Below, one piece after another: positions 5,981 through 24,594 of a DNA stretch of 29,676 nucleotides. The notes beneath the pieces were generated by a model, which was not told where the DNA came from, made no database searches, and worked only from the letters and a program-made list of their open reading frames with translations. Numbering within the stretch: the first letter of the stretch is position 1; the number at the start of each line of letters is the position of its first letter. The stretch lies in the IMG/VR virus record IMGVR_UViG_2660238507_000002, positions 1 through 29,676 of that record; one strand, written 5' to 3'. The stretch is from a virus (Duplodnaviria > Heunggongvirae > Uroviricota > Caudoviricetes). Made by a program: the position numbers and the translations under genes.

Positions 5981-7822
5981 CCAGGACAACGCGCTGCTGG
6001 TTCGTGTTACTACTGCCGTAACGGAAGGTAACGTTTTGATACCCAGCACAGAGAATCCCAGACGGATGACTGCCAGCGGCCCCAGCACTGCAGCCAGCGC
6101 CACCGCTAAGGTGCCGAGGCCTAGGGTAACCGCAGCCACAACAGCCGCTACTTTCATCAGTGTGCCTGTCAGTTCCGGGTTAGCTTCCACCCAGCGGCGC
6201 AACGCCCCCGTGATGCTTTTCACCGTGTACAGAATATCCATCAGCGGCTGGCGCAGCGTTTCGCCCAGGCTGCTGAAGGTATTCTGTGCAGTGGTTTTGA
6301 CCAGCAACCACTGCGCAGAAAGTGAATCCTTGTTAATGTCGGATTCTTTCTGCATGGAGCCGAGCGCATCATTGCCCGCTGTCAGTTTTAGCTGGCGCTG
6401 TAGTTCCGGCAGGTTGTTTGCCAGTTTCGCCGCGTCATCGCCAAACTCTTTACCAAACAACATAGTCATGGCAGACAGACGCTTGTCCTGCGGCAGTGCG
6501 TTCACCTTCTCCAGCACACGCTGGATAGTTCCCATCGCATCCTTCGTCATCTGCTTTTCAATCACTTCAGGATTGAGTTTCAGCAGATTCATCCCTTCAA
6601 AGAAACTCTTGCTCTGCATGGTGGCAATGGACAATTCACGCACCATCGCGTTTGCTGCACTGGCTGCAACCTCCGGCGCAGCGCCCAGTGTCAGAAAGGT
6701 GGAACCCAGCGCCGCCGCTTTACGATAATCCAGACGGTCCGCCACACCGCCCAGACGTTGCATGACATCAATAATGTCTGCCCCTTTCGACATGGCGTTA
6801 TCATCCAGATAGTTCAGCGCATCACCTAGCTGTTCAATATTGCGGGTAGGGATTTTGTAGAGCTGGGCGATTTTCCCCAGACTTTCTGACAGTTCATCCG
6901 CTGGCAGCTCAAAGGCTGTTGCCGCCTTTGCTGCTGTGCTGGCGAAGGCCAGCAGATCACGTTTCTGGTCTTCCCAGCTGTCGTCAGGGTTTGCGACGTT
7001 CATGCGCGCACCACCTTCAACCAGTGCAGCGAAGTCCACAGCACCGTTTTCCATCGGCAACTGTTCGCTGGCAGCCTTGATGGCATCCTGCATTTCATAA
7101 AAACGTGCAGTGCGGTTGCCATTATCGTCACGCAGACCATTGACCTGCTTTGCCACACCTTTCATGGCATCTTCTATGCTGGTATAGCTTTTTACTGCCG
7201 CCATCACTGGCGTCCCCATTGCCAACCCTGCAGCCGTGGTAGTGGCTCCGGCTCCTGCAATACGATCGCGCACCTCCAGCGAACGGGCATAACTGGCACG
7301 CGCCGCATTCATCCTGCGCTGAGCTTCCCCCAGTCGCTTCAGCCGCGCCTCCTGTTTCGACAGTTCCTGGTTATAACGTGATGTTTCACGGGCTAAACGG
7401 GCAGTTGCTCCCGCATCATCTTTCGCAGAAATTCCCGCCCGGTACAGTTCTGCACGCACAAGCGCCGTTTGCTTCTGCAAATATTTTTGTTGTTCTTCCA
7501 GGCGTTGGACTGCCAGCGTTTGCCGACCTAAAGCCACAAGGTGCCGTTGTGATGGTTGTTCCATCGCTTCCAGCTCAGAACTAAGCAAATTTGCCTTCTG
7601 TCTGGCATAGTTCAGCCTGTCGCCTAACTTTTTGTTATCGGCCTGCAGCTTGCGAAATTTTTCCAGGCTGTTACCCGCCTGATTGAGTTGCTTTAATGCG
7701 TCACGGGAGTTTCTGATTGCGCCAGCCAGCTCTTTCGAACTGGCCTGTGCAGCACGGAATGGGCGGGTGAGTTTGTCAACCGCATTAAGAATGACCTGCA
7801 GGCGCAGGTTATTATCACTCAT
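5948..7822 (-). pseudogene. T: tail tape measure protein, N-terminal segment (624 codons, ends at in-frame stop)
   Basis: Long Ala/Leu/Gln/Arg-rich coiled-coil-like ORF starting MSDNNLRLQV, followed by hydrophobic stretch; start overlaps E' stop (ATGAGTGA). Confidence 0.75.
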
Positions 7823-7994
7823 CGTTGGCCCCGCTTCTCTGAATCGCTTTATACCGCCATTCCAGCACTTCGGTCAGCGGCATAACGTCAGTAACGGATG
7901 GCGGCCAGTGAAAAATGGTGGCGATATCTGCCACCAGATCGTCAACCGTCAGGCTGTCGGTAAACCGGCAAGCACCGACTTCTTCAACAAAAAA
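7815..7994 (-). CDS. E': E' extension produced by -1 programmed frameshift (E+E')
   Basis: TTTTTTG slippery heptamer on minus strand at 7988-7994 near the E 3' end; -1 frame stays open about 58 codons and terminates at TGA overlapping the T start codon. Confidence 0.6.
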   Translation of the reverse strand, partial: FFVEEVGACRFTDSLTVDDLVADIATIFHWPPSVTDVMPLTEVLEWRYKAIQRSGANDE

Positions 7995-8251
7995 GTGACA
8001 ACCTCAACCGACATGGCAGTGAGATCTGCCGGGTCCATCTCTGCAATTTCCTGTGCAGTCAGTGCCGGACTGGAAATGCGGGGGATCACGGTCATCATCG
8101 CGTTCACATCCATATCCATAATGGCCTGCAGGCGTGTACCGCGCAGCGCACCGGACTGCGGTTTACGCAACACAATTTCGGTAATTTCTGTTTTACCGCG
8201 CATGATGGGGGTATCCAGTTGAATGGTCTTTTCAGTCTGCTTATCGTTCAT
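7949..8251 (-). CDS. E: tail assembly chaperone E
   Basis: ORF directly upstream of T as in P2; ends with slippery heptamer. Confidence 0.75.
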   Translation of the reverse strand: MNDKQTEKTIQLDTPIMRGKTEITEIVLRKPQSGALRGTRLQAIMDMDVNAMMTVIPRISSPALTAQEIAEMDPADLTAMSVEVVTFLLKKSVLAGLPTA

Positions 8252-8305
8252 TTTGTTGTCCTGTAAATTGGGTTCTGGCGCGGTATCCCGCGCCGTTCAG
8301 ATAGA

Positions 8306-8821
8306 TCAGAGGCCGAGGGCGTTGCGGTGCGCTTCCATCAGGTCCACACCGTCCACAATTTCCACCATGTTGATAAGGTCCACTTCATAGAGCACCTCAC
8401 CATTGATGGTCAGCTTCGCGTAGCTGTTGGTACTGGTCACTTTGGTGGTGTTGCTTTCGCCCGTCTTCCACTCGCCGGAATCCACTTCTTTGTGACGTCC
8501 ACGCACCACAAGCTCCACGGCCTGCACTTCTCCGGTATCGTCACGCTGGATAGAGCCGGTAAAGCGCAACTGGATGCCATCCACCGTGGCTTTGCCCATC
8601 TGCTTAAACAGCAGCAGTTCAGTACCACCAATGGAAAATTCTGTGTCCAGAGCACTGTCATCCAGTCCCAGATCCACATCCACTGCACCCGGCATTCCGC
8701 CGCCGCGATACTTCTCATATTTGCGGGTGAATTTCGGCAGCGTCAGCGACTCAACGATCCCCTGCCAGTTGTTCCCGTCGTTAAACAGGTTCAGGTGTTT
8801 TAATTTGCGTGGTAAAGCCAT
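8306..8821 (-). CDS. FII: tail tube protein FII
   Basis: 171-aa ORF, size/position and sequence as P2 gpFII. Confidence 0.85.
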   Translation of the reverse strand: MALPRKLKHLNLFNDGNNWQGIVESLTLPKFTRKYEKYRGGGMPGAVDVDLGLDDSALDTEFSIGGTELLLFKQMGKATVDGIQLRFTGSIQRDDTGEVQAVELVVRGRHKEVDSGEWKTGESNTTKVTSTNSYAKLTINGEVLYEVDLINMVEIVDGVDLMEAHRNALGL

Positions 8822-8830
8822 GTTGTCCCC

Positions 8831-15236: not shown

Positions 15237-17003
15237 ATGAACACCACACTGACACCCGCAGATCTCGATCCCCGTCGGCAGGCCATGCTGCTGTACTTTC
15301 AGGGATACCGCGTCGCCCGCATTGCTGAAATGCTGGGCGAGAAAGTTGCAACCGTTCACAGCTGGAAAAAACGCGACAAGTGGGGTGACTATGGGCCGCT
15401 GGATCAGATGCAGCTCACCACCGCCGCACGCTACTGCCAGCTCATTATGAAGGAGCACAAAGAAGGGAAAGATTTCAAAGAGATTGACCTGCTGGCGCGC
15501 CAGTCGGAACGCCACGCGCGGATCGGCAAGTTTAACAATGGCGGCAACGAAGCCGACTTAAACCCTAACGTCGCCAACCGTAACAAAGGCCCGCGCCGTC
15601 AGCCGGAAAAGAATGTTTTCACCGATGAACAGATTGAGAAGCTGGAAGAAATCTTTCATTCCTCCATGTTCAACTACCAGCGCCACTGGTGGGAAGCCGG
15701 AAAAACCAACCGCATCCGCAACCTGCTGAAGTCACGCCAGATCGGCGCGACCTTCTATTTTGCCCGTGAAGCCCTGATTGACGCCCTGCTGACCGGACGT
15801 AACCAGATTTTCCTTTCCGCCAGTAAGGCACAGGCCCACGTCTTTAAGCAGTACATCATCGACTTCGCCAAAGAAGTGGATGTGGAACTGAAAGGCGATC
15901 CGATGGTGCTTCCTAACGGGGCCACGCTTTACTTCCTCGGCACCAATGCCCGCACGGCCCAGAGTTATCACGGCAACCTGTATCTGGATGAATATTTCTG
16001 GATACCGAAATTTCAGGAGCTACGCAAAGTGGCTTCCGGTATGGCTATTCACAAGAAATGGCGGCAGACCTATTTTTCCACACCATCCAGCCTGACCCAC
16101 AGTGCTTATCCGTTCTGGTCCGGTGCGCTGTTCAACCGCGGACGCAACAAAGCCGACAAGGTGGACATCGACCTGTCCCACAACAATCTGGCCCCCGGCC
16201 TGCTGTGCGCTGACGGGCAATACCGCCAGATAGTCACCGTCGAAGATGCGGTGCGCGGCGGCTGTAACCTGTTCGACCTTGACCAGTTGCGCATGGAATA
16301 CAGCCCGGACGAATACCAGAACCTGCTGATGTGCGAGTTTGTGGACGATCTCGCGTCCGTGTTCCCGCTCAGCGAACTACAGGCGTGCATGGTGGACAGC
16401 TGGGAAGTCTGGACCGACTTTCATGCACTGGCGCTGCGCCCGTTTGGCTGGCGCGAAGTGTGGATCGGTTATGACCCGGCAAAAGGTACGCAGAACGGCG
16501 ACAGCGCCGGATGCGTAGTGGTGGCACCGCCAGCCGTGCCGGGCGGTAAGTTCCGCATTCTTGAGCGTCACCAGTGGCGCGGGATGGACTTCCGCGCCCA
16601 GGCTGACGCCATCAAAAAACTGACTGAACAGTACAACGTGACATACATCGGTATCGACTCAACCGGCGTCGGTCACGGGGTTTACGAGAACGTGAAAGCG
16701 TTTTTTCCTGCCGTCCGGGAGTTTGTCTACAACCCCAACGTTAAAAATGCCCTGGTACTCAAGGCCTACGACATTATCAGTCACCGCCGTCTGGAGTTTG
16801 ACGCCGGACACACCGACATAGCGCAGTCATTTATGGCAATCCGTCGCGCCACCACCGCCAGCGGCAACCGCCCGACCTATGAAGCCAGCCGCAGCGAAGA
16901 AGCCAGCCATGCCGATCTGGCGTGGGCAACAATGCACGCACTGTTTAACGAACCGCTGCAGGGCGAGTCCGCCAATACCAGCAATATTGTGGAGATTTTT
17001 TGA
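15237..17003 (+). CDS. P: terminase ATPase (large) subunit P
   Basis: 588-aa ORF; translation resembles P2 gpP. Confidence 0.85.
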   Translation: MNTTLTPADLDPRRQAMLLYFQGYRVARIAEMLGEKVATVHSWKKRDKWGDYGPLDQMQLTTAARYCQLIMKEHKEGKDFKEIDLLARQSERHARIGKFNNGGNEADLNPNVANRNKGPRRQPEKNVFTDEQIEKLEEIFHSSMFNYQRHWWEAGKTNRIRNLLKSRQIGATFYFAREALIDALLTGRNQIFLSASKAQAHVFKQYIIDFAKEVDVELKGDPMVLPNGATLYFLGTNARTAQSYHGNLYLDEYFWIPKFQELRKVASGMAIHKKWRQTYFSTPSSLTHSAYPFWSGALFNRGRNKADKVDIDLSHNNLAPGLLCADGQYRQIVTVEDAVRGGCNLFDLDQLRMEYSPDEYQNLLMCEFVDDLASVFPLSELQACMVDSWEVWTDFHALALRPFGWREVWIGYDPAKGTQNGDSAGCVVVAPPAVPGGKFRILERHQWRGMDFRAQADAIKKLTEQYNVTYIGIDSTGVGHGVYENVKAFFPAVREFVYNPNVKNALVLKAYDIISHRRLEFDAGHTDIAQSFMAIRRATTASGNRPTYEASRSEEASHADLAWATMHALFNEPLQGESANTSNIVEIF

Positions 17004-18028
17004 TGGGAAAGAGTAAGAAGAACCGCGCTGTGTCGACGAACCAGATTCAGCATAAAAGCCAGACTTCAGCCGAAGCATTCAGCTTTGGCGATCCCGTTCC
17101 TGTTCTGGACCGCCGCGAACTGCTGGACTATGTGGAATGCGTACAGACAGATCGCTGGTATGAGCCGCCAGTGAGTTTTGACGGACTGGCGCGAACCTTC
17201 CGCGCTGCCGTGCATCACAGTTCACCAATTGCGGTGAAATGCAACATTCTGACCAGTACCTACATCCCTCACCCGCTTCTCAGCCAGCAGGCTTTTTCAC
17301 GTTTTGTGCAGGACTATCTGGTATTTGGTAACGCATACCTGGAGAAACGCACGAACCGGTTCGGTGAAGTTATCGCCCTTGAGCCTGCTCTGGCAAAATA
17401 CACCCGACGTGGGTTAGACCTGGATACCTACTGGTTTGTGCAATACGGCATGACAACCCAGCCGTATCAGTTCACGAAAGGCAGCATCTTTCATCTGATG
17501 GAACCCGATATCAACCAGGAGATCTACGGCCTGCCCGGTTATCTTTCTGCCATTCCGTCAGCCCTGCTCAACGAGTCCGCCACGCTGTTCCGACGCAAAT
17601 ATTATATTAATGGCAGCCATGCAGGATTCATAATGTACATGACCGATGCCGCTCAGAACCAGGAGGATGTGAACAACCTCCGCAACGCGATGAAAAGCGC
17701 CAAAGGGCCAGGCAACTTCCGCAACCTGTTTATGTACTCGCCTAACGGCAAAAAAGACGGGCTTCAGATCATCCCATTGTCAGAAGTCGCGGCGAAAGAT
17801 GAGTTTTTGAATATCAAAAATGTTAGTCGCGATGACATGATGGCGGCACACCGCGTGCCGCCGCAGATGATGGGGATTATGCCTAATAATGTTGGGGGAT
17901 TTGGGGATGTGGAGAAGGCAAGCAAAGTGTTTGTGCGGAATGAGTTAATGCCATTGCAAAAGAATTTTGAATCACTGAATAACTGGGCTGGAAAAGAAAT
18001 TATTTCATTTAATGACTACTGTTTTTAA
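17000..18028 (+). CDS. Q: portal (capsid vertex) protein Q
   Basis: 342-aa ORF overlapping P stop, as P2 gpQ. Confidence 0.85.
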   Translation: MMGKSKKNRAVSTNQIQHKSQTSAEAFSFGDPVPVLDRRELLDYVECVQTDRWYEPPVSFDGLARTFRAAVHHSSPIAVKCNILTSTYIPHPLLSQQAFSRFVQDYLVFGNAYLEKRTNRFGEVIALEPALAKYTRRGLDLDTYWFVQYGMTTQPYQFTKGSIFHLMEPDINQEIYGLPGYLSAIPSALLNESATLFRRKYYINGSHAGFIMYMTDAAQNQEDVNNLRNAMKSAKGPGNFRNLFMYSPNGKKDGLQIIPLSEVAAKDEFLNIKNVSRDDMMAAHRVPPQMMGIMPNNVGGFGDVEKASKVFVRNELMPLQKNFESLNNWAGKEIISFNDYCF

Positions 18029-18033
18029 GAAAA

Positions 18034-18057
18034 TGCGCATGGAAATTTTCATGCGCA
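18034..18057. terminator. palindromic hairpin between convergent Q and reverse transcriptase genes
   Basis: TGCGCATGGAAA / TTTTCATGCGCA near-perfect palindrome; on the minus strand it is followed by ATTTTCTT. Confidence 0.5.
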
Positions 18058-18063
18058 CACACG

Positions 18064-18993
18064 TTATTCTGATACTACAGGTTGATATCTCTGGATTTCA
18101 TCAATCAGCTCTGATGAATATTTCGCACAAAGCCTATTAATAAATAATGGCTCAACACTTTTGCAATACGATAAATATCCTTGAAGAAATAGCCTTTTCT
18201 TCTCATCAAGAGCCTCCCATTTAAAAATAAGCGATTTAACCATCCTTTTTTTATCTCTCCCTAAGGATACTCCACCATCTGTTGTCAAAGTCACACCCGT
18301 AACCATCATTTTATTTTTCTTTGACATATGCAGTGTCTTTTTTCTATTAATCCATAGTTTTGATGGGTATTTCAAATTTTTTAAATTCGAGCGTAAAAAA
18401 GGTGGTATTTGCTTCAATACATTTTCTTCGTTTGTTGAGAAGTACATATCATCAGCATAGCGTGTATATGTTATACCTTTTGAAAGACAAAATTCATTCA
18501 ATATATGATCTAATTCATAGCATATAGCATTGCTTACCACAGGGGAACTAACAGCACCCATAGTCAGTCTCCCGTTAAAGCATACTATTTTTACCAGCAA
18601 ATCAGTATCATCCTTTGACCAATCATCACTGAAGAAATGCTTGTTGTCGTTTATAAATCTCTCAACATCACTTTTCTTAATTGAATCAAAAAAACCTTCA
18701 AAGTCCATCTTAAGCATAAAACGTTTAGCTTTGTGAATGCTTGCATGTTTGAACACTGATGAACCCTGCTGATATGCTACAGCATTTGGATGAATCGGCA
18801 ATTTCGACAGAACATTATCATGAAGTAATCTCTGCAAAACTTTTAATTCTTTAGAGGGCTGATAGACGATTCTTGTCCCACCGCCTTTTTTAGGTACAGA
18901 AAATTTACCATAATGCGAGTTAGCATCATTTGCAACTTTTAATATAAAATCAGCTTCTAACAGTAAAACTTTAGCTAGATACTCAATTAACAT
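18064..18993 (-). CDS. retron-type reverse transcriptase
   Basis: 309-aa ORF with RT motifs: N-terminal FSVPKKGGGTRIVYQP, motif A KMDFEGFFDSI, motif B GAVSSPVVSNAICY, motif C YTRYADDMYF, and retron-typical VTGV downstream; AT-rich; ATG 1 nt after upstream gene stop. Confidence 0.85.
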   Translation of the reverse strand: MLIEYLAKVLLLEADFILKVANDANSHYGKFSVPKKGGGTRIVYQPSKELKVLQRLLHDNVLSKLPIHPNAVAYQQGSSVFKHASIHKAKRFMLKMDFEGFFDSIKKSDVERFINDNKHFFSDDWSKDDTDLLVKIVCFNGRLTMGAVSSPVVSNAICYELDHILNEFCLSKGITYTRYADDMYFSTNEENVLKQIPPFLRSNLKNLKYPSKLWINRKKTLHMSKKNKMMVTGVTLTTDGGVSLGRDKKRMVKSLIFKWEALDEKKRLFLQGYLSYCKSVEPLFINRLCAKYSSELIDEIQRYQPVVSE

Positions 18994-18994
18994 A

Positions 18995-20047
18995 TCACAT
19001 GATCCTTTCTAATTCTGCTTTGAATTTAGATATCATTATTAAATCGGATAATGATCTAGCTCTACTTCGTTGAATACTTTCAACTAAATCTTTCATCTTT
19101 TCATGATTAAAAAATTTAATATAATCGACACATGAATAATGGGTCACGCCCTCAAATCGACTTTCCTTAAAAATCCCAAGGGCAACTCCAATAGAAACAA
19201 CAAATGAAATATTTTTATTAATTTTATAATTTATCAACCTACCTGTGATATTAATAATCTCAGGAATTGTTATTGGACCTAAAGAAGATATAACAACGAG
19301 CACAAAAAATAAAAAAATTTTTGGTGAATATTTGTAATCACCTATTGAATTTGTATTAGTTATGTTTGATTGAACTTTCCTATTTAGCCTTTCATTTATT
19401 TTAGGCATACACGTTAAAATTGTCTCAAATTCAGTATAGATTGTAGGGCCAAATTTGGATTCACTATCAACCCATTTTACGGGCCCTGTATTGATAAATG
19501 ACTTATGACTTTCAAACTTTTTATCTAATATAGGAAGAAGTTTTTTACGTAAAACAGGACTTAATGAAAATGCGCCCAATTCAGCTACAGTGCCATAACT
19601 CTCTACGAGAATAATTACCACATCAGAAAAATCCGCAAGCCATTCTTCAAGTGATAGCGCATTCACATTACTATGAGTTCCTAAATTGCTAATTACTTCC
19701 CATGCTAATTCTGCTCGAAAAGTAACAAATTCTTTATGATGCTTAGCAATATATTTTTCCAGCATCCCTCTATTTGAACAATAAGTCTCATCTCCTCCAC
19801 AAATAAATAATACTTTTGGCAGGATATAATTAAAAGAATTCAAGTTACTTGGAAAAAAACTTGAAATAAAATTTTCTTTTGCTCGTAAATATCTAGGATG
19901 TTTAAACCACATAACAATTAATGCCCATACAAGAGTTCCCGAGACACAAGTTAGCCTGGTGTCTATAAATGACACAAGGCTAACTTGTGTCGAGATACCA
20001 AGCAATCCATACGAGTTGGCTAAACACCAACCACTAGAAAGTAACAT
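18995..20047 (-). CDS. retron effector candidate: NDT/SLOG-like domain followed by two predicted transmembrane helices
   Basis: ORF translationally coupled to RT; contains ..VVIILVESYGTVAELGAF.. (resembles nucleoside deoxyribosyltransferase-like Glu motif) and hydrophobic stretches KIFLFFVLVVISSLGPITIPEII and ISFVVSIGVALGIF. Start uncertain: first 46 codons overlap a strong hairpin and look non-protein-like, so true start may be ATG at 19912. Confidence 0.6.
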   Translation of the reverse strand: MLLSSGWCLANSYGLLGISTQVSLVSFIDTRLTCVSGTLVWALIVMWFKHPRYLRAKENFISSFFPSNLNSFNYILPKVLFICGGDETYCSNRGMLEKYIAKHHKEFVTFRAELAWEVISNLGTHSNVNALSLEEWLADFSDVVIILVESYGTVAELGAFSLSPVLRKKLLPILDKKFESHKSFINTGPVKWVDSESKFGPTIYTEFETILTCMPKINERLNRKVQSNITNTNSIGDYKYSPKIFLFFVLVVISSLGPITIPEIINITGRLINYKINKNISFVVSIGVALGIFKESRFEGVTHYSCVDYIKFFNHEKMKDLVESIQRSRARSLSDLIMISKFKAELERIM

Positions 20048-20110
20048 ATTGAATGTACTTTCCTGCTAAGGGCACAGCTAGGCTAGCACTAACATACGGA
20101 TTATTCAAGT
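19915..20110 (-). ncRNA. candidate retron msr-msd non-coding RNA (extent approximate)
   Basis: Position immediately upstream of effector-RT operon; contains very stable hairpin at 19941-19993 as expected for an msd stem; a1/a2 repeats and branching G not identified. Confidence 0.3.
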
Positions 20111-20129
20111 GAATGCAGCTCAGCGCGCG

Positions 20130-20148
20130 CTCGTATCCCCGCCACGCC
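20130..20148. other. candidate cos site (cohesive-end sequence)
   Basis: Minus-strand GGCGTGGCGGGGATACGAG resembles the P2 19-nt cohesive end GGCGAGGCGGGGAAAGCAC as I recall it (about 14/19 identical); GC-rich island between two AT-rich inserts. Confidence 0.3.
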
Positions 20149-20193
20149 TGCCCGCTTTATGTAGTAGTTTTCATGCAGGTGCATGATCTACGC

Positions 20194-20217
20194 AAAAGCC
20201 CGCCAGTTCTGGCGGGC
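20194..20217 (-). terminator. rho-independent terminator ending the upstream two-gene cassette
   Basis: GCCCGCC-agaact-GGCGGGC hairpin followed by TTTT on the minus strand. Confidence 0.7.
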
Positions 20218-20265
20218 CTTAGCAAAAACGATCCTCAAACGATCATGCGATCTCATGCAGCATAG

Positions 20266-21108
20266 TCATGCACGATCATTTGACTCAGCATCTGCTGCAC
20301 GCTTGCTGCGCGAAGATGCACTTTTACTACCAATCTTTCGACAGTTCTTTCTATCCCTGGCTTCATTTTCTTTAAATTTGTTATATGTCTCAGTATCAAA
20401 AAACGAAATTGTTTCAACCTCATCTTTTGGTATGAGCACACGGAAATCTTCGATATTAAGCCGAGACATTCCACTTATCACACCACTATCAAGATAATGT
20501 TGGTGATAGTTAGTCGTGATACTAATCGTTAGATCATCTTTATCCCGATATCCGCTTAACATCGGGAGAAGTTCAAGGTGTTCTGAAAGCCCGTTTTCTA
20601 ACGCCGGACAAGTAACAAGACCAACATAGATTTTGCGAGACGACAGAGTTGCTATGATCGGAAACTGTCTTGCGGACGCTTCCATGAGTAATGATTCGAA
20701 AGCGTTATTACCCACAGCTTTAGCTAAGGCATCCCAGCGACGATCTCCACGTGATGTGCGTAACTTATTTCCAAAACCTGAAATCGCAGCGAGAACAATT
20801 GAAATCATAACCCATGCTATCTGTTTGATTTCATTTATTCTTTGAAGTTTGTCTTTCGATGAAGACAACATGCCATTAAAACTGTCAGGTGTTAGATTCA
20901 AGGCATTAGCCAGCCAACGAAACCCTCCGCTGACGTTCAAAATAAAGGTGAAAAAACCGCCAAGGAGAAAAAAAACGATACCCCAGGCAGCCACAAAAAA
21001 ATAAGCGTCCCAGCCGTTGGAACGCTTATATCGGTATCTTGTTGAAAGTGATAGGTTTACATAAATAAAACCACTAACCAAAATCACTGCTAAAAGTAAT
21101 GTTGCCAT
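20266..21108 (-). CDS. hypothetical membrane protein (3 predicted N-terminal TM helices plus ~160-aa soluble C-terminal domain)
   Basis: 280-aa ORF, AT-rich, start overlaps upstream gene stop (TAATG); no recognisable family. Confidence 0.65.
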   Translation of the reverse strand: MATLLLAVILVSGFIYVNLSLSTRYRYKRSNGWDAYFFVAAWGIVFFLLGGFFTFILNVSGGFRWLANALNLTPDSFNGMLSSSKDKLQRINEIKQIAWVMISIVLAAISGFGNKLRTSRGDRRWDALAKAVGNNAFESLLMEASARQFPIIATLSSRKIYVGLVTCPALENGLSEHLELLPMLSGYRDKDDLTISITTNYHQHYLDSGVISGMSRLNIEDFRVLIPKDEVETISFFDTETYNKFKENEARDRKNCRKIGSKSASSRSKRAADAESNDRA

Positions 21109-21323
21109 TATCTGGTTCTATTAGTTTTCTCTTTTACAGTGCTCGTTTTGATGCCTTCAAGCTTATCCATCTGTGCCTTGATGGCATCCATTGCTCTTTT
21201 GTTAGACAAGTCTACGGACACAAAACCATCTTTACTAAGATTGAGTTTGTCCTGGTTCTCTTTAAGAACCCTTGCCAGACGTTCAACTGGGTTACCCAGG
21301 CTAAATGCGGCGATGCTTGACAT
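21108..21323 (-). CDS. hypothetical small soluble protein, first gene of two-gene cassette
   Basis: 71-aa ORF with strong RBS AAGGGGGAG 5 nt upstream of ATG; translationally coupled to the 280-aa gene. Confidence 0.6.
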   Translation of the reverse strand: MSSIAAFSLGNPVERLARVLKENQDKLNLSKDGFVSVDLSNKRAMDAIKAQMDKLEGIKTSTVKEKTNRTR

Positions 21324-21593
21324 AACTCCCCCTTTTCACATGGCGCGGAAGTCTACACTCCGACGCCTACAACCTCAACAGATTATCTTTAAAATTTAGA
21401 CAACAATATCATCTGTTGATTTCGTTACTTAAACTTAAGTTCAATGCGCTCGATCATGCAAGCGGTTTCTTAAGAACTGTTAATTTCCTGGCATATATAG
21501 TGGTTAAGATAACAAATTGACACTAACGCCTCGCATAGCTCGTTGTTCAACCTTGCTGACGCCAGAAGCAAGTTCAGACGCCAGCAACGTTTC

Positions 21594-21827
21594 TTAATGC
21601 AGCCAGCTGTCGTCTTCCCACACCTTCTGCATAATTTTCATCACTTGCTTCCTTTCTTCGTCCAGTTGCAGTCCGGTCAGTTCCACACCGTTAGAGCTAC
21701 CTTTACGGATACGAATTACCGTTTTGGGATATAGGGGGCGCAGATTGCGGTAAAGCTCGGATTCAAGGGCGTCCAGGGTAGACTGGCTAATCTTCTGCTC
21801 TTTATCGATCATTATTTCAATGCGCAT
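21594..21827 (-). CDS. DinI-like / Tum-like protein
   Basis: Translation from MRIEIMIDKEQ... resembles DinI (MRIEVTIAK..); own RBS GAGGGGA upstream of ATG at 21827; ORF-track start at 21899 judged an upstream artefact. Confidence 0.7.
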   Translation of the reverse strand: MRIEIMIDKEQKISQSTLDALESELYRNLRPLYPKTVIRIRKGSSNGVELTGLQLDEERKQVMKIMQKVWEDDSWLH

Positions 21828-21837
21828 AAAAGTCCCC

Positions 21838-22026
21838 TCAGCTGATGACATCCATTGAGCGGTTGTATTCGTGGCTTCTGATTTTTGCCATGAGTTCATC
21901 TGTCAGTTCAGAAACCCACTGCAGGGCCAACCCCTTCTCTTCATCACTACACTCACTAGCCGCTACAAGCTTAAGAAAAAAATCAATGCGTTGGAGCTTC
22001 AAAGACTCCCAAAAATAGTCCTGCAT
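21838..22026 (-). CDS. hypothetical small protein, first gene of LexA-box operon
   Basis: 62-aa ORF from ATG at 22026 preceded by AGGAGG; upstream part of ORF-track frame overlaps the LexA box and is probably non-coding. Confidence 0.5.
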   Translation of the reverse strand: MQDYFWESLKLQRIDFFLKLVAASECSDEEKGLALQWVSELTDELMAKIRSHEYNRSMDVIS

Positions 22027-22067
22027 CTTTCCTCCTATGACACCACAAGCAATACTGTATGCATAAC

Positions 22068-22087
22068 CACTGTTTATATTTACAGTA
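22068..22087. promoter_or_regulatory. LexA (SOS) box
   Basis: CACTGTTTATATTTACAGTA = CTGT-N8-ACAG consensus, ~45 bp upstream of the small ORF / DinI-like operon; adjacent partial box TACTGTATGCATAACCAC. Confidence 0.7.
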
Positions 22088-22179
22088 TATAATAATCTTA
22101 CTGATGTAAAACGTTTTTTTACGTTCATCAGCCTGATATGCCGGGTATTATTAAGAGCACGAATTGTTAACCCGCGTAA

Positions 22180-24594
22180 TTAATACAGGTTCCGCCACTT
22201 ATCATCTTCCTGCAAACGCTGGTTCCGATAGAAGATACGCAGGCCTGCTCCTGACGGAATGCTGCCGCCGCGAAGGAGTAAATCGACCTCTTTCTCGCTG
22301 CCATCAAATCCTCTGGACTTCAGTTCATAGACGAGCTGCTGTCGTTGATGGTCTGTAATTCGCTGTTTGTAGTCTCTACGCCGTTTCGGTTTCACCAGGC
22401 GTAACCTTGCAGCCAGTTCCCGGCGCTCTTTTTTGTTCATACTGTGCAGGTAATCGTGCAACTCCTTGTCATCCATACGGGTGATATCCGTTCTGGTATC
22501 CCCATCAGCTGATTTGTCTTTCCCTTGTTGGTACAAATTTTCAGCAAGGGGACAGTTATTGCCACGAGTCCAAGGGGCGCAAGCGCCCTGGTCGGCTGCC
22601 GCCTCCTGAACGTCAACGGCTTTACGGACCATTTTCCACTTCACTGCATGAGTGCAGATCTTGCCCTCTGCAATGGGTGACCAGATGCCATAAATACGAA
22701 TACCGTGATCGCCATAGGCGGTCGGCTCTTCGTTGATTTCATAAGCGGTTCTGATGAGGTGATATTTACGGGGAACCAGTACGCCGCCCTGCTTCATGAT
22801 GTAGGTGGCAAAGCAACCAGCATCAGCTGCAGCCAGAATGGCATCAAGGCGCGGGTTATCCAGTACCGGCGCACCTGCTTTTTTGTCACCCTGTTGCCTT
22901 GCCGCCTGACCAGCCAGCAATCGCAGTTCACGGTAAGCCTGACGCCCCGGAATGCCAAAGAAGCGGAATTGCTGAACACGATGCAGAGACGCCCAGGCAT
23001 TAACGTATTCAGCGTTATCACGCAGAGATTTACCCGTTTCCTTGCTGATCTCGCCAGCCAGACCACGCCCGTCAATGTTCTTACTGATGTATTTCGCGAT
23101 GTAGCTTGTTGGTGTACCTTTGCGCGGGTTTATCAGCTCAGACTTAAAGCGTGGTCCTGTGTTATTACCCAGCTCCTCGCGGTCTTCACGAATGGCAAAC
23201 TTACGCAACAAAGCAGTAATGGCGCGGCGATCTTTTTTGCGCATAAAACACAACAGGTGCCAGTGAACTGTACCGTCATGATGCGGCTCAGCCACCCGCA
23301 CGCCATACCAGCGCAATCCGGCTTTGTACATCGCCTTACGAAATGCAGCAAACATGCCGACCAGATAATCACTGCTTTGTCTTACCGTCGCATTTGTCCA
23401 GTTCGGGTTGGGCCTGCCGTTATTTAGCGTGGAATGGAAACGTGACGGACAGGTGATGGTGTAGAAAACGGCGCAGTCACCGCGCATTTCCGCGATAAGC
23501 TCCAGACCTTTAACACATGCCATCATCTCATTGCGGCGATGCGCCGGGTTGCTACTACTGGCGTTTACCACGTCCTCCATATCCAGCGTGTCGCCGTCTT
23601 CGTTCACCAGTTCATGAGAACGGAAAAACTCCAGCGACTTACGGCGCTGCTCACGTTTATGCATCACGGCTTCATAGCTGACATAGGGAGATGCTTTTTT
23701 GCTGACCAGGCAAACAGCACGCAACTGCTCTTCCCGCCATTCGAAACGCATCTTCCATAATTTCCGATACCACCAGTCGGCGCACAACATACGCGCCAGC
23801 GAACCCGGAATGAGTTCATAGGGTACGGGTTTACGGCGGTTTCTTTTCCGGCGGAGTTGCTCAAACGCAGGAGGGATGACATCCAGACGCAGGGTTTCCG
23901 CCGCCACCCTTTCCCATGTCTTGCGGATTTCTTCTGGCTTAACGTCATCGGTGGCATACAAATCACCACAAGCTGCATCAAGGCACATGCTCATATGCGC
24001 GGCAACAAGGGTAGACAGGCGCTTCACCTGATCCTGACTCATTTCAGGCAAGATCAGCAGGCCGTCCAGCCCTTCATGGCTTGCCATAAAACGAAAAGAT
24101 GCAGATAGCTGGCTGTCGCGTACATGCTCTAGTCGTTCCAGACATGGTTTAATCGTCTCACGCAAATAGCGGGAATAAGCCTTTGGCCTGCCCAGGCTGC
24201 TGAAGTATTCAATACGTTGCATCAGCGGCTTGCTGATATGGGAAGGCTGGGCGTTAACGTCCGCCAGTATGACCATGTCCGGATTAAAACGCTGCTGCTC
24301 ATGCACCAGCTTTGCCCGGCTAATGAGCTTATCCTGCTCCATTTCGCGCTGGACAGGATCACGGGATTCATTAAAGAAATAACGCTCCCAGACCTGATCA
24401 CTCAGTGCCTCGCGGCGCAGTTGTTCCTGCTTGTTATCGGCAGCGTACAGAGTGATCAGGTTTGAAAGCGCAGAAACCGGCGCAACTTCCGCCGGGTCCA
24501 GATAAGGGTTAATCGCCTTTTTCGGGCTGTTCCATGAGAATGCTGCGGCGGCCTCGTTAAAGCCGCTGCAGTTGTTCATATCAGCATGTCTCAT
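22180..24594 (-). CDS. A: replication initiation protein A (rolling-circle endonuclease)
   Basis: 804-aa ORF at the position of P2/186 gene A; start overlaps dam stop. Confidence 0.8.

Follow-up and report, generated by a model that had tools for sequence, protein, structure and literature searches.

A two-gene cassette beside cos in a P2-like prophage

The 29,676-nucleotide stretch of DNA analysed here, IMG/VR record IMGVR_UViG_2660238507_000002 (the window, at its full length), is a 186/P2-like prophage that carries a cassette of two minus-strand genes, encoding a 71-residue protein and a 280-residue predicted membrane protein, between replication gene A and a cos-like site. Positions 20050-21450 are 100% identical to the chromosome of E. 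coli MS14386, on which RefSeq annotates the same two coding sequences (CDSs) as WP_000094764.1 (71 residues) and WP_000212611.1 (280 residues), both hypothetical. The RefSeq order on the minus strand is replication endonuclease A, a 62-residue protein, a DinI-like protein, the two cassette genes, a retron St85-family effector and a reverse transcriptase; portal and terminase genes are annotated on the plus strand beyond the retron. The features that define the cassette and its slot are the following.

21108-21323, minus strand: gene for the 71-residue small protein, the predicted soluble partner (from the list of open reading frames, ORFs)
20266-21108, minus strand: gene for the 280-residue membrane protein, WP_000212611.1 (ORF list; matches PHROG 3630 at 3.3e-99)
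22180-24594, minus strand: gene A, replication (ORF list and RefSeq)
22070-22085: perfect LexA box CTGTTTATATTTACAG, upstream of the 62-residue ORF and the DinI-like (186 Tum-like) gene
20195-20220, minus strand: intrinsic-terminator-like hairpin (fold z-score -4.1) in the shared cos-proximal backbone, closing the leftward transcript
20136-20148, minus strand: cos-like core GGCGTGGCGGGGA, a single exact match where 0.04 are expected by chance, dividing the cassette slot from the retron slot

The two genes share a single base, within TAATG, and the ORF coordinates and RefSeq CDSs both confirm the overlap described in an earlier reading of this DNA made without database searches (the sequence-only reading). 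Klebsiella phage ST15-OXA48phi14.1 has a copy of 80% identity, and comparison with it gives ratios of nonsynonymous to synonymous substitution rates of 0.05 (large gene) and 0.21 (small gene). Because these ratios are low and protein homologues occur in other orders, both ORFs are real genes under purifying selection. The G+C content of the cassette is 0.40-0.44, compared to 0.52-0.61 for the structural genes, in agreement with the earlier statement that it falls below that of the phage backbone, and to 0.29-0.35 for the retron.

Positions 20118-20273 match ~1,270 E. coli genomes, only 52 of which contain the cassette. These 52 are all that were found among 5,426 E. coli genomes, so that 99% are without it. 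On the other side, the DinI gene also belongs to the backbone (~1,070 genomes, versus 52 with the cassette), and cassette-free genomes resume at ~21520-21523, or at 21584. Since backbone homology stops at ~20273 and restarts at ~21520, the exchangeable module as delimited by these alignments extends from ~20274 to ~21520 and consists of the two genes plus ~200 bp upstream, ~1.25 kb altogether. The hairpin at 20195-20220, previously taken for the cassette's own terminator, lies outside these limits in backbone common to the ~1,270 mostly cassette-free genomes and cannot be credited to the cassette. The same shared backbone contains GGCGTGGCGGGGA, which is cos-like by comparison with the P2/186 cos sequence.

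The slot thus runs, as had been read from the sequence, between the LexA-controlled operon on the gene A side and the cos-like core; it lies between gene A and portal gene Q, adjoins cos, and varies in content among otherwise syntenic prophages. In E. coli CFSAN061761, a DUF2971 protein occupies the cassette slot and DprA the retron slot, and Klebsiella phage ST15-OXA48phi14.1 combines the same cassette with a SEFIR protein in place of the retron. This gpA-gpQ/cos region is a documented hotspot of P2-like phages (Rousset et al. 2022, PMC9122126; Moura de Sousa et al. 2026, PMC13586616), whose residents include old/tin, retrons, DprA-PRTase and others. Together with the exchange for DUF2971 in a sister prophage, these reports uphold the view that the slot is known for variable anti-phage cargo.

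The small and large proteins occur as a pair

The 71-residue protein is predicted to fold as a helix (residues 12-22), a beta-hairpin (27-37) and a long helix (42-69) followed by a basic tail. In searches of Pfam, NCBIfam, PADLOC and PHROGs it matched only PHROG 9843, a group of unknown function. Its conserved core has the form x-phi-x-phi-xxDG-x-phi-x-phi-N and leads into an amphipathic helix.

We sampled 80 large-protein loci at the species level and searched them with a hidden Markov model (HMM) of the small protein. This gave 49 distinct pairs in which a homologue immediately precedes the large gene on the same strand, mostly with gaps of -4 to +20 nt. The divergence of the two proteins was correlated (Spearman rho 0.57, a value reached in 0 of 500 permutations). 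The small gene thus precedes a larger gene to which it is coupled and with which it is co-inherited, the arrangement of type II toxin-antitoxin (TA) systems, and the distribution and co-divergence of the two proteins indicate that they are an obligate pair.

In many NCBI and UniRef records, the 71-residue protein and its close homologues (P0059, P0063, P0064 and P0069) are named 'multidrug ABC transporter ATPase'. This label cannot be right, because the protein has only 71 residues and lacks ABC motifs; it is a propagated misannotation.

The large protein is predicted to anchor an Sm-like barrel in the membrane

Two regions make up most of the 280-residue protein.

20761-21105, minus strand: membrane region, residues 2-116, with transmembrane helix 1 (TM1), a basic cytoplasmic loop (RYRYKRSNGWD), TM2, a periplasmic loop of ~35 residues and TM3
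20395-20703, minus strand: predicted cytoplasmic Sm/LSm-like beta-barrel, residues 136-238, with the motif LPxLSGYRDKDxLT

The three TM segments named in the sequence-only reading were recovered both as three hydrophobic segments in hydropathy analysis and as helices in an AlphaFold2 model (pLDDT 77), which places helices at residues 2-29, 33-60 and 87-119, another helix at 136-147, and then a barrel of strands up to residue 236. The family-wide net charge (K+R) is +2.0 for loop 1, -0.8 for loop 2 and +1.7 after TM3; because of this bias, the predicted topology is N-out/C-in and the Sm-like domain would be cytoplasmic. The top Foldseek matches of the model are all Sm/LSm proteins, and the modelled domain has the elements of that fold, a helix at the N-terminal end and, after it, an antiparallel sheet of five strands that is bent strongly into a small barrel.

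Across 65 diverse family members, G13, Y36, K159, Y161, G163, P182, S185, G186 and Y201 are invariant; these positions belong to the motifs GW.xYF and LP.LSGYRDKD.L. The invariant positions from K159 to Y201 all fall in the Sm-like barrel, and the membrane region conserves G13, G32, Y36 and G43. SRKxYVGxV and LSGYRDKD resemble the Sm motifs G..Y.G.L and IRG, a likeness seen by eye only. A profile search of PDB sequences returned nothing below E 0.2 and no Sm protein, the best Sm-like match being YaeO at E 0.22. PHROG 3630, a group of unknown function, is the sole PHROGs match of the large protein, and searches of Pfam, NCBIfam and PADLOC gave nothing. The earlier failure to recognise either protein is thus borne out at the level of characterised families in Pfam, NCBIfam, PADLOC, PHROGs and the PDB profile search; fold comparison adds the Sm/LSm-like barrel of the large protein.

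The family is large. A first homologue search gave 57 clusters, all from Gammaproteobacteria and all 'hypothetical', and a profile search of 1.84 billion representatives gave 2,888 at E <=1e-3, with 2,016 at E <=1e-10; among the matches listed, most are 240-300 residues long and align over nearly their full length. At 50% identity the family amounts to ~2,900 clusters from Proteobacteria and Acidobacteria. Pfam DUF6338, the only Pfam family matched among the 65 distant relatives, was passed by 3 of them over the N-terminal membrane half (best P0199, 30.8 versus 26.5 bits, residues 3-134), and the window protein does not reach its gathering threshold. Because DUF6338 itself has no known function, the match is uninformative on function.

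The large gene is split or truncated in ~7 of the 80 species-level loci (L024, L027, L031, L043, L049, L057 and L066), which are probable pseudogenes; two of these loci belong to Candidatus Symbiopectobacterium genomes.

A conserved hairpin inside the large gene is a candidate attenuator

A terminator scan detected a further element within the coding sequence of the large gene.

20994-21029, minus strand: terminator-like hairpin with a 12-bp stem and a run of seven U, at ORF nucleotides 80-115 (codons 27-38)

The hairpin has a stability of -16.4 kcal/mol (z-score -3.4). Its nucleotides TAAGCGTTC...TGGGACGCTTATTTTT are identical among homologues with just 45-57% amino-acid identity, and the freeze of synonymous sites spans homologues with merely 41-57% identity. 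Among 19 homologues with >=40% amino-acid identity, a single codon is used in 92% of cases at the conserved codons 27-38, compared to 59% gene-wide, which places this segment at the top of 126 windows. In 18 of the 19 homologues this site has a hairpin with a U-tract, and only 7 such elements occur elsewhere in 76 genes. Two stem pairs show compensatory double changes, and the one in Aeromonas changes the protein (S30A, D34H) while keeping the pairing. The element is therefore a GC-rich stem-loop and U-tract in the transcribed strand, more strongly conserved than its coding role requires, and probably acts as an attenuator that throttles expression of the large gene.

Two Pasteurellaceae homologues (L047 5875-5907 and L048 1240-1271) have an unrelated hairpin and U-run ~25 nt downstream of the enterobacterial hairpin position, which may be a convergent intragenic attenuator.

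Expression signals and the upstream region

Four features precede the small gene.

21326-21334, minus strand: Shine-Dalgarno sequence AAGGGGGAG of the small gene, read in the sequence, with GGAGG/GGGGAG kept in the Klebsiella phage and Pectobacterium copies
21324-21520, minus strand: ~200 bp that move with the cassette, with blocks conserved in the Klebsiella phage and Pectobacterium; cassette-free genomes resume at ~21520-21523
21375-21389 and 21405-21419: imperfect 15-nt inverted repeat upstream of the cassette, core CAACAG...CTGTTG
21429-21444: palindrome ACTTAAgtTTAAGT, upstream of the cassette

AAGGGGGAG bears out the strong ribosome-binding site previously assigned to the cassette, and it serves the small gene; the large gene has no Shine-Dalgarno sequence of its own, and its translation is predicted to depend on the TAATG coupling. 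The inverted repeat and the palindrome are kept in the Klebsiella phage and in Pectobacterium and have no counterpart in more distant relatives. A sequence scan found no consensus sigma-70 promoter and no canonical terminator between the DinI-like gene and the cassette. Hand-picked -35/-10 promoter candidates were weak and were dropped.

Because no canonical terminator was found there, SOS read-through from the LexA-controlled operon of the 62-residue and DinI-like genes into the cassette is possible. The cassette might then be an accessory for induction or lytic growth, co-transcribed with this DinI/Tum-like operon after SOS and acting, for example, on host RNA, on Rho- or Hfq-dependent processes or on lysis timing. 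The LexA box at 22070-22085 upstream of the operon and the missing promoter would suit such a role, as would the presence of YaeO, an Sm-like Rho inhibitor, among the weak matches of the large protein. The DinI gene, moreover, adjoins the cassette again in Pectobacterium, where DinI, the small gene and the large gene are retained as a chromosomal islet. Elsewhere, however, the pair sits in unrelated transcription contexts (tail genes, integrase-repressor region) and the ~200 bp upstream travel with it, and DinI is a backbone gene found in far more genomes than the cassette (~1,070 versus 52). We consider this SOS-linked role very improbable.

Mobility and distribution of the cassette

About 10 species carry the pair in the same gpA-Q slot of P2-like prophages. 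In Salmonella phage SEN5, the cassette is at the genome end beside cos, and the record stops ~170 nt past it. Other positions are also used: an Enterobacter lambdoid prophage has the pair between tail genes K and I, and two P2-like phages, a Shewanella prophage and Pseudoalteromonas phage C5a, have it in the integrase-repressor region. Judging from these arrangements, the cassette is a self-contained mobile cargo module of prophages (a moron) that moves as a unit between cargo slots.

A distant pair occupies a conserved chromosomal position in the Pseudomonas fluorescens group (L061-L084, ~7800-8830 in each locus). There, an ORF of 66-80 residues overlaps a gene for a 275-residue protein by 13 nt, and the pair follows an Oxidored_FMN-type gene of 651 residues and a helix-turn-helix regulator. 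The upstream ORF was missed by the small-protein HMM and has the same hairpin-helix pattern. Unlike the enterobacterial prophage copies, the Pseudomonas pair looks vertically inherited. We also scanned the neighbourhoods of 38 non-P2 loci (147 flanking proteins), where phage integrase was the commonest neighbour; tail, portal and terminase genes of lambda type came next, along with many housekeeping genes.

These data lend credibility to the alternative that the two proteins bind RNA or a ligand at the membrane and serve the physiology of the host or lysogen, through lysogenic conversion or housekeeping for example, with no part in defence. The family is very large (2,888 representatives), its chromosomal locus is conserved in many Pseudomonas species with metabolic genes around it, and housekeeping genes are frequent neighbours elsewhere. 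RNA metabolism is the setting in which the Sm/Hfq fold is best known. The gpA-gpQ hotspot also holds non-defence cargo such as partition systems and CDT (PMC9122126). The clade to which the window cassette belongs is, however, almost always found in prophage cargo slots with fast turnover; the cassette is absent from 99% of E. coli genomes, and many loci adjoin integrases. On balance we regard a physiological role as unlikely, if credible.

A proposed membrane effector restrained by a small partner

The reading that we favour, tentatively and with somewhat less than an even chance of being right, is that the cassette is a lysogen-expressed anti-phage exclusion or abortive-infection (Abi) module with toxin-antitoxin-like logic and a membrane effector. 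A defence role is suggested by location and architecture. It is favoured because the cassette lies in prophage cargo slots and because of the published share of such unknown cargo that proved defensive: 3 of 8 further P2-hotspot systems defended (PMC9122126), and in published P4 data the figure is 6 of 8 randomly chosen unknown loci. Strict pairing, a predicted skew of expression to the small product and a membrane anchor joined to a ligand- or nucleic-acid-binding type of domain together suggest a membrane effector that is sensitive to dose and controlled by its small partner.

In such a module, the membrane protein would be the effector. Its Sm-like domains would probably bring copies of it together as a ring that binds nucleic acid or a small ligand at the membrane, and the small protein, produced in excess, would be its partner, regulator or sensor. 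Synthesis of the effector would be throttled twice, by TAATG coupling with no ribosome-binding site of its own and by the hairpin 80 nt into its ORF, which, unless a ribosome following close behind blocked its folding, would end the majority of transcripts beyond the small gene. Attenuation of this kind would hold the membrane protein at a lower level than its small partner; infection would shift the balance, and the effector would then damage the membrane or block the invader. Anti-phage function, ring formation, toxicity, the role of the partner and attenuation are all properties that we infer.

Several results weigh against this proposal. Neither protein has homology to a validated defence protein in PADLOC-DB v2 at E up to 0.1, and a search of the 65 relatives against the same database gave a single chance-level match. 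PADLOC matches among the non-P2 neighbours were few and generic, a weak defence signal; because integrase and tail genes dominate these neighbourhoods and PADLOC matches are sparse, we do not count them as defence-island evidence. The chromosomal Pseudomonas relatives (20-25% identity) fit a non-defence role at least there, and the non-defence cargo of the hotspot counts on the same side. Family alignments revealed no conserved polar, pore-lining residues in the TM helices, and the small protein has no recognisable antitoxin fold, including none of the antitoxin type that binds DNA. Autoregulation by the small protein through a conserved upstream operator was considered and gained no general support, the inverted repeat being shared by close relatives only. 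The proposal, finally, is drawn from sequence and predicted structure.

Exclusion of superinfecting phages could also operate without suicide, with an inner-membrane protein that blocks phage genome entry and a small protein that serves as a factor for its assembly or stability. P22 SieA, T4 Imm and HK97 gp15 block entry of incoming phage genomes in this way. A predicted inner-membrane protein with a domain on the cytoplasmic face would suit the task, and so would the lysogen-expressed slots: the pair is repressor-adjacent in phage C5a and the Shewanella prophage, it occupies a tail-gene moron slot as does HK97 gp15, and SieB occurs in the same hotspot loci as the cassette. Known superinfection-exclusion (Sie) proteins are, however, usually encoded by single genes, whereas a soluble partner is kept almost everywhere here; tight down-regulation by an attenuator would be more usual for a toxic effector than for a gatekeeper expressed constitutively; and searches of Pfam, NCBIfam and PHROGs found nothing homologous to a Sie family. 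We judge pure exclusion to be rather unlikely.

The same gene arrangement would be expected of an addiction module, a TA pair that stabilises the prophage or its episomal form and has no direct anti-phage action. In its favour are the coupling of a small first gene to a larger gene for a probably dose-sensitive membrane protein, the skew of expression towards the small product that the intragenic hairpin would cause, and the partition systems that ~1/4 of P2-like phages have in the gpA-gpQ hotspot (PMC9122126). The small protein, however, shows no antitoxin-type DNA-binding fold, and no operator is conserved family-wide. Addiction also overlaps the anti-phage proposal, because many TA modules of such hotspots prove to be Abi systems. 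Taken as a separate explanation, it seems to us quite improbable.

If the anti-phage proposal holds, the cassette would bring to the immunity conferred by prophages a new effector architecture, in which the inner membrane anchors an Sm/LSm-type barrel, and would give a function to thousands of unannotated proteins and their overlooked partners of 50-80 residues. A broader version, that these proteins are a widespread undescribed class of immune effectors, in which membrane-anchored Sm-like rings are gated by nucleic acids or ligands and restrained by a co-evolving mini-protein and by an attenuator in the effector coding sequence, we think rather improbable. The hairpin frozen in the coding sequence is a compact, directly testable instance of a means by which a phage might hold a dangerous membrane protein at low levels. 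Should the cassette turn out not to be defensive, it would still illustrate plainly that a hotspot whose contents are often assumed to be defence can hold cargo of another kind. Many other cassettes of such hotspots are likewise uncharacterised; this one, only 1.25 kb long and from E. coli, is easily tested.

Comparison with known systems

As a cargo cassette of the hotspot with a membrane protein, the pair is familiar in kind. Its Sm-like membrane architecture, universal mini-partner, family size and coding-sequence attenuator appear undescribed, and literature searches (accessions, DUF6338, Sm-like with defence) found no characterisation of the family and no phage test of the accessions. The cassette shares the slot of P2 old/tin and other gpA-gpQ cargo (PMC9122126) and their character as low-GC, rapidly exchanged cargo of a P2/186-like prophage, but is unrelated in sequence and domains both to Old, which is an ATPase-TOPRIM nuclease, and to Tin.

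Both accessions are present in Table S5A of Rousset et al. 2022 (PMC9122126), as 'hypothetical + hypothetical' only. The claim that this is the best candidate in the window for an undescribed defence system is therefore upheld in part: the hotspot site, cargo swapping and lack of a known family speak for it, but the pair had already been tabulated and the type II-A retron of the window is a candidate as well. Systems 43 and 57 of Table S5B in the same study ('2 TM') belong to the same family, with the GW..YF and ISGYRDKD motifs, and come from the same hotspot; neither has an assigned function or is among the validated systems in the P2 section (PMC9122126). System 57, like the cassette, also has a partner of ~78 residues, and system 43 is listed as a single gene. 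The two are sub-families of roughly 25-30% identity.

Lambda RexA/RexB and similar two-component Abi systems are, as is generally known of Rex, encoded by prophages, and they resemble the cassette in expected expression by the lysogen, in combining one soluble with one polytopic membrane component and in apparently controlled stoichiometry. There is no homology to Rex; the soluble component of the cassette is tiny (71 residues), and its membrane protein bears the large cytoplasmic domain. In ToxIN, a type III TA/Abi system, a terminator sets the antitoxin:toxin ratio. The cassette is similar in that a terminator-like element after the first product would limit read-through into a second, putatively toxic gene. 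The ToxIN terminator is, however, intergenic and its antitoxin is an RNA, whereas the cassette hairpin, a candidate terminator, is embedded in the effector ORF, and the cassette encodes a protein as its first product.

MscS channels, which are heptamers, are of similar size and likewise have three N-out/C-in TM helices followed by a cytoplasmic Sm-like beta domain. The resemblance is architectural only: homology to MscS was rejected, with hhalign probabilities of 0.1-0.6% and no match to Pfam MS_channel. The window domain is 10-21% identical to Sm, LSm and Hfq proteins and the related WYL ligand-sensing domains (BrxR, DriD, CapW), but differs from them in its fusion to a three-TM anchor, an extra insertion between strands and an invariant motif of its own. 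Pfam DUF6338 is shared by a few distant relatives over the membrane half and not by the window protein.

The retron slot across cos

The slot on the other side of the cos-like core is occupied by a retron.

18064-20047, minus strand: type II-A (St85-family) retron between cos and the portal gene, with an NDT-like effector and a reverse transcriptase (PADLOC NDT_II-A 1e-53, RT_II-A 4e-105; NCBIfam retron St85)
19943-19991, minus strand: msd-like stem, a 21-nt inverted repeat with 95% complementarity, within the annotated 5' end of the 350-residue effector ORF

A functional link between the cassette and the retron was considered and rejected, since the slot of the retron is a separate one, on the far side of cos, that holds SEFIR or DprA in other phages. 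An Rfam search of 17000-22500 gave only a chance miRNA match and none for a retron RNA. The retron effector family models match only from residue 57-76 onward. Because they begin there and the msd-like repeat lies inside the ORF, the msr-msd RNA is probably located at ~19900-20117 and the start of the effector ORF is probably over-extended.

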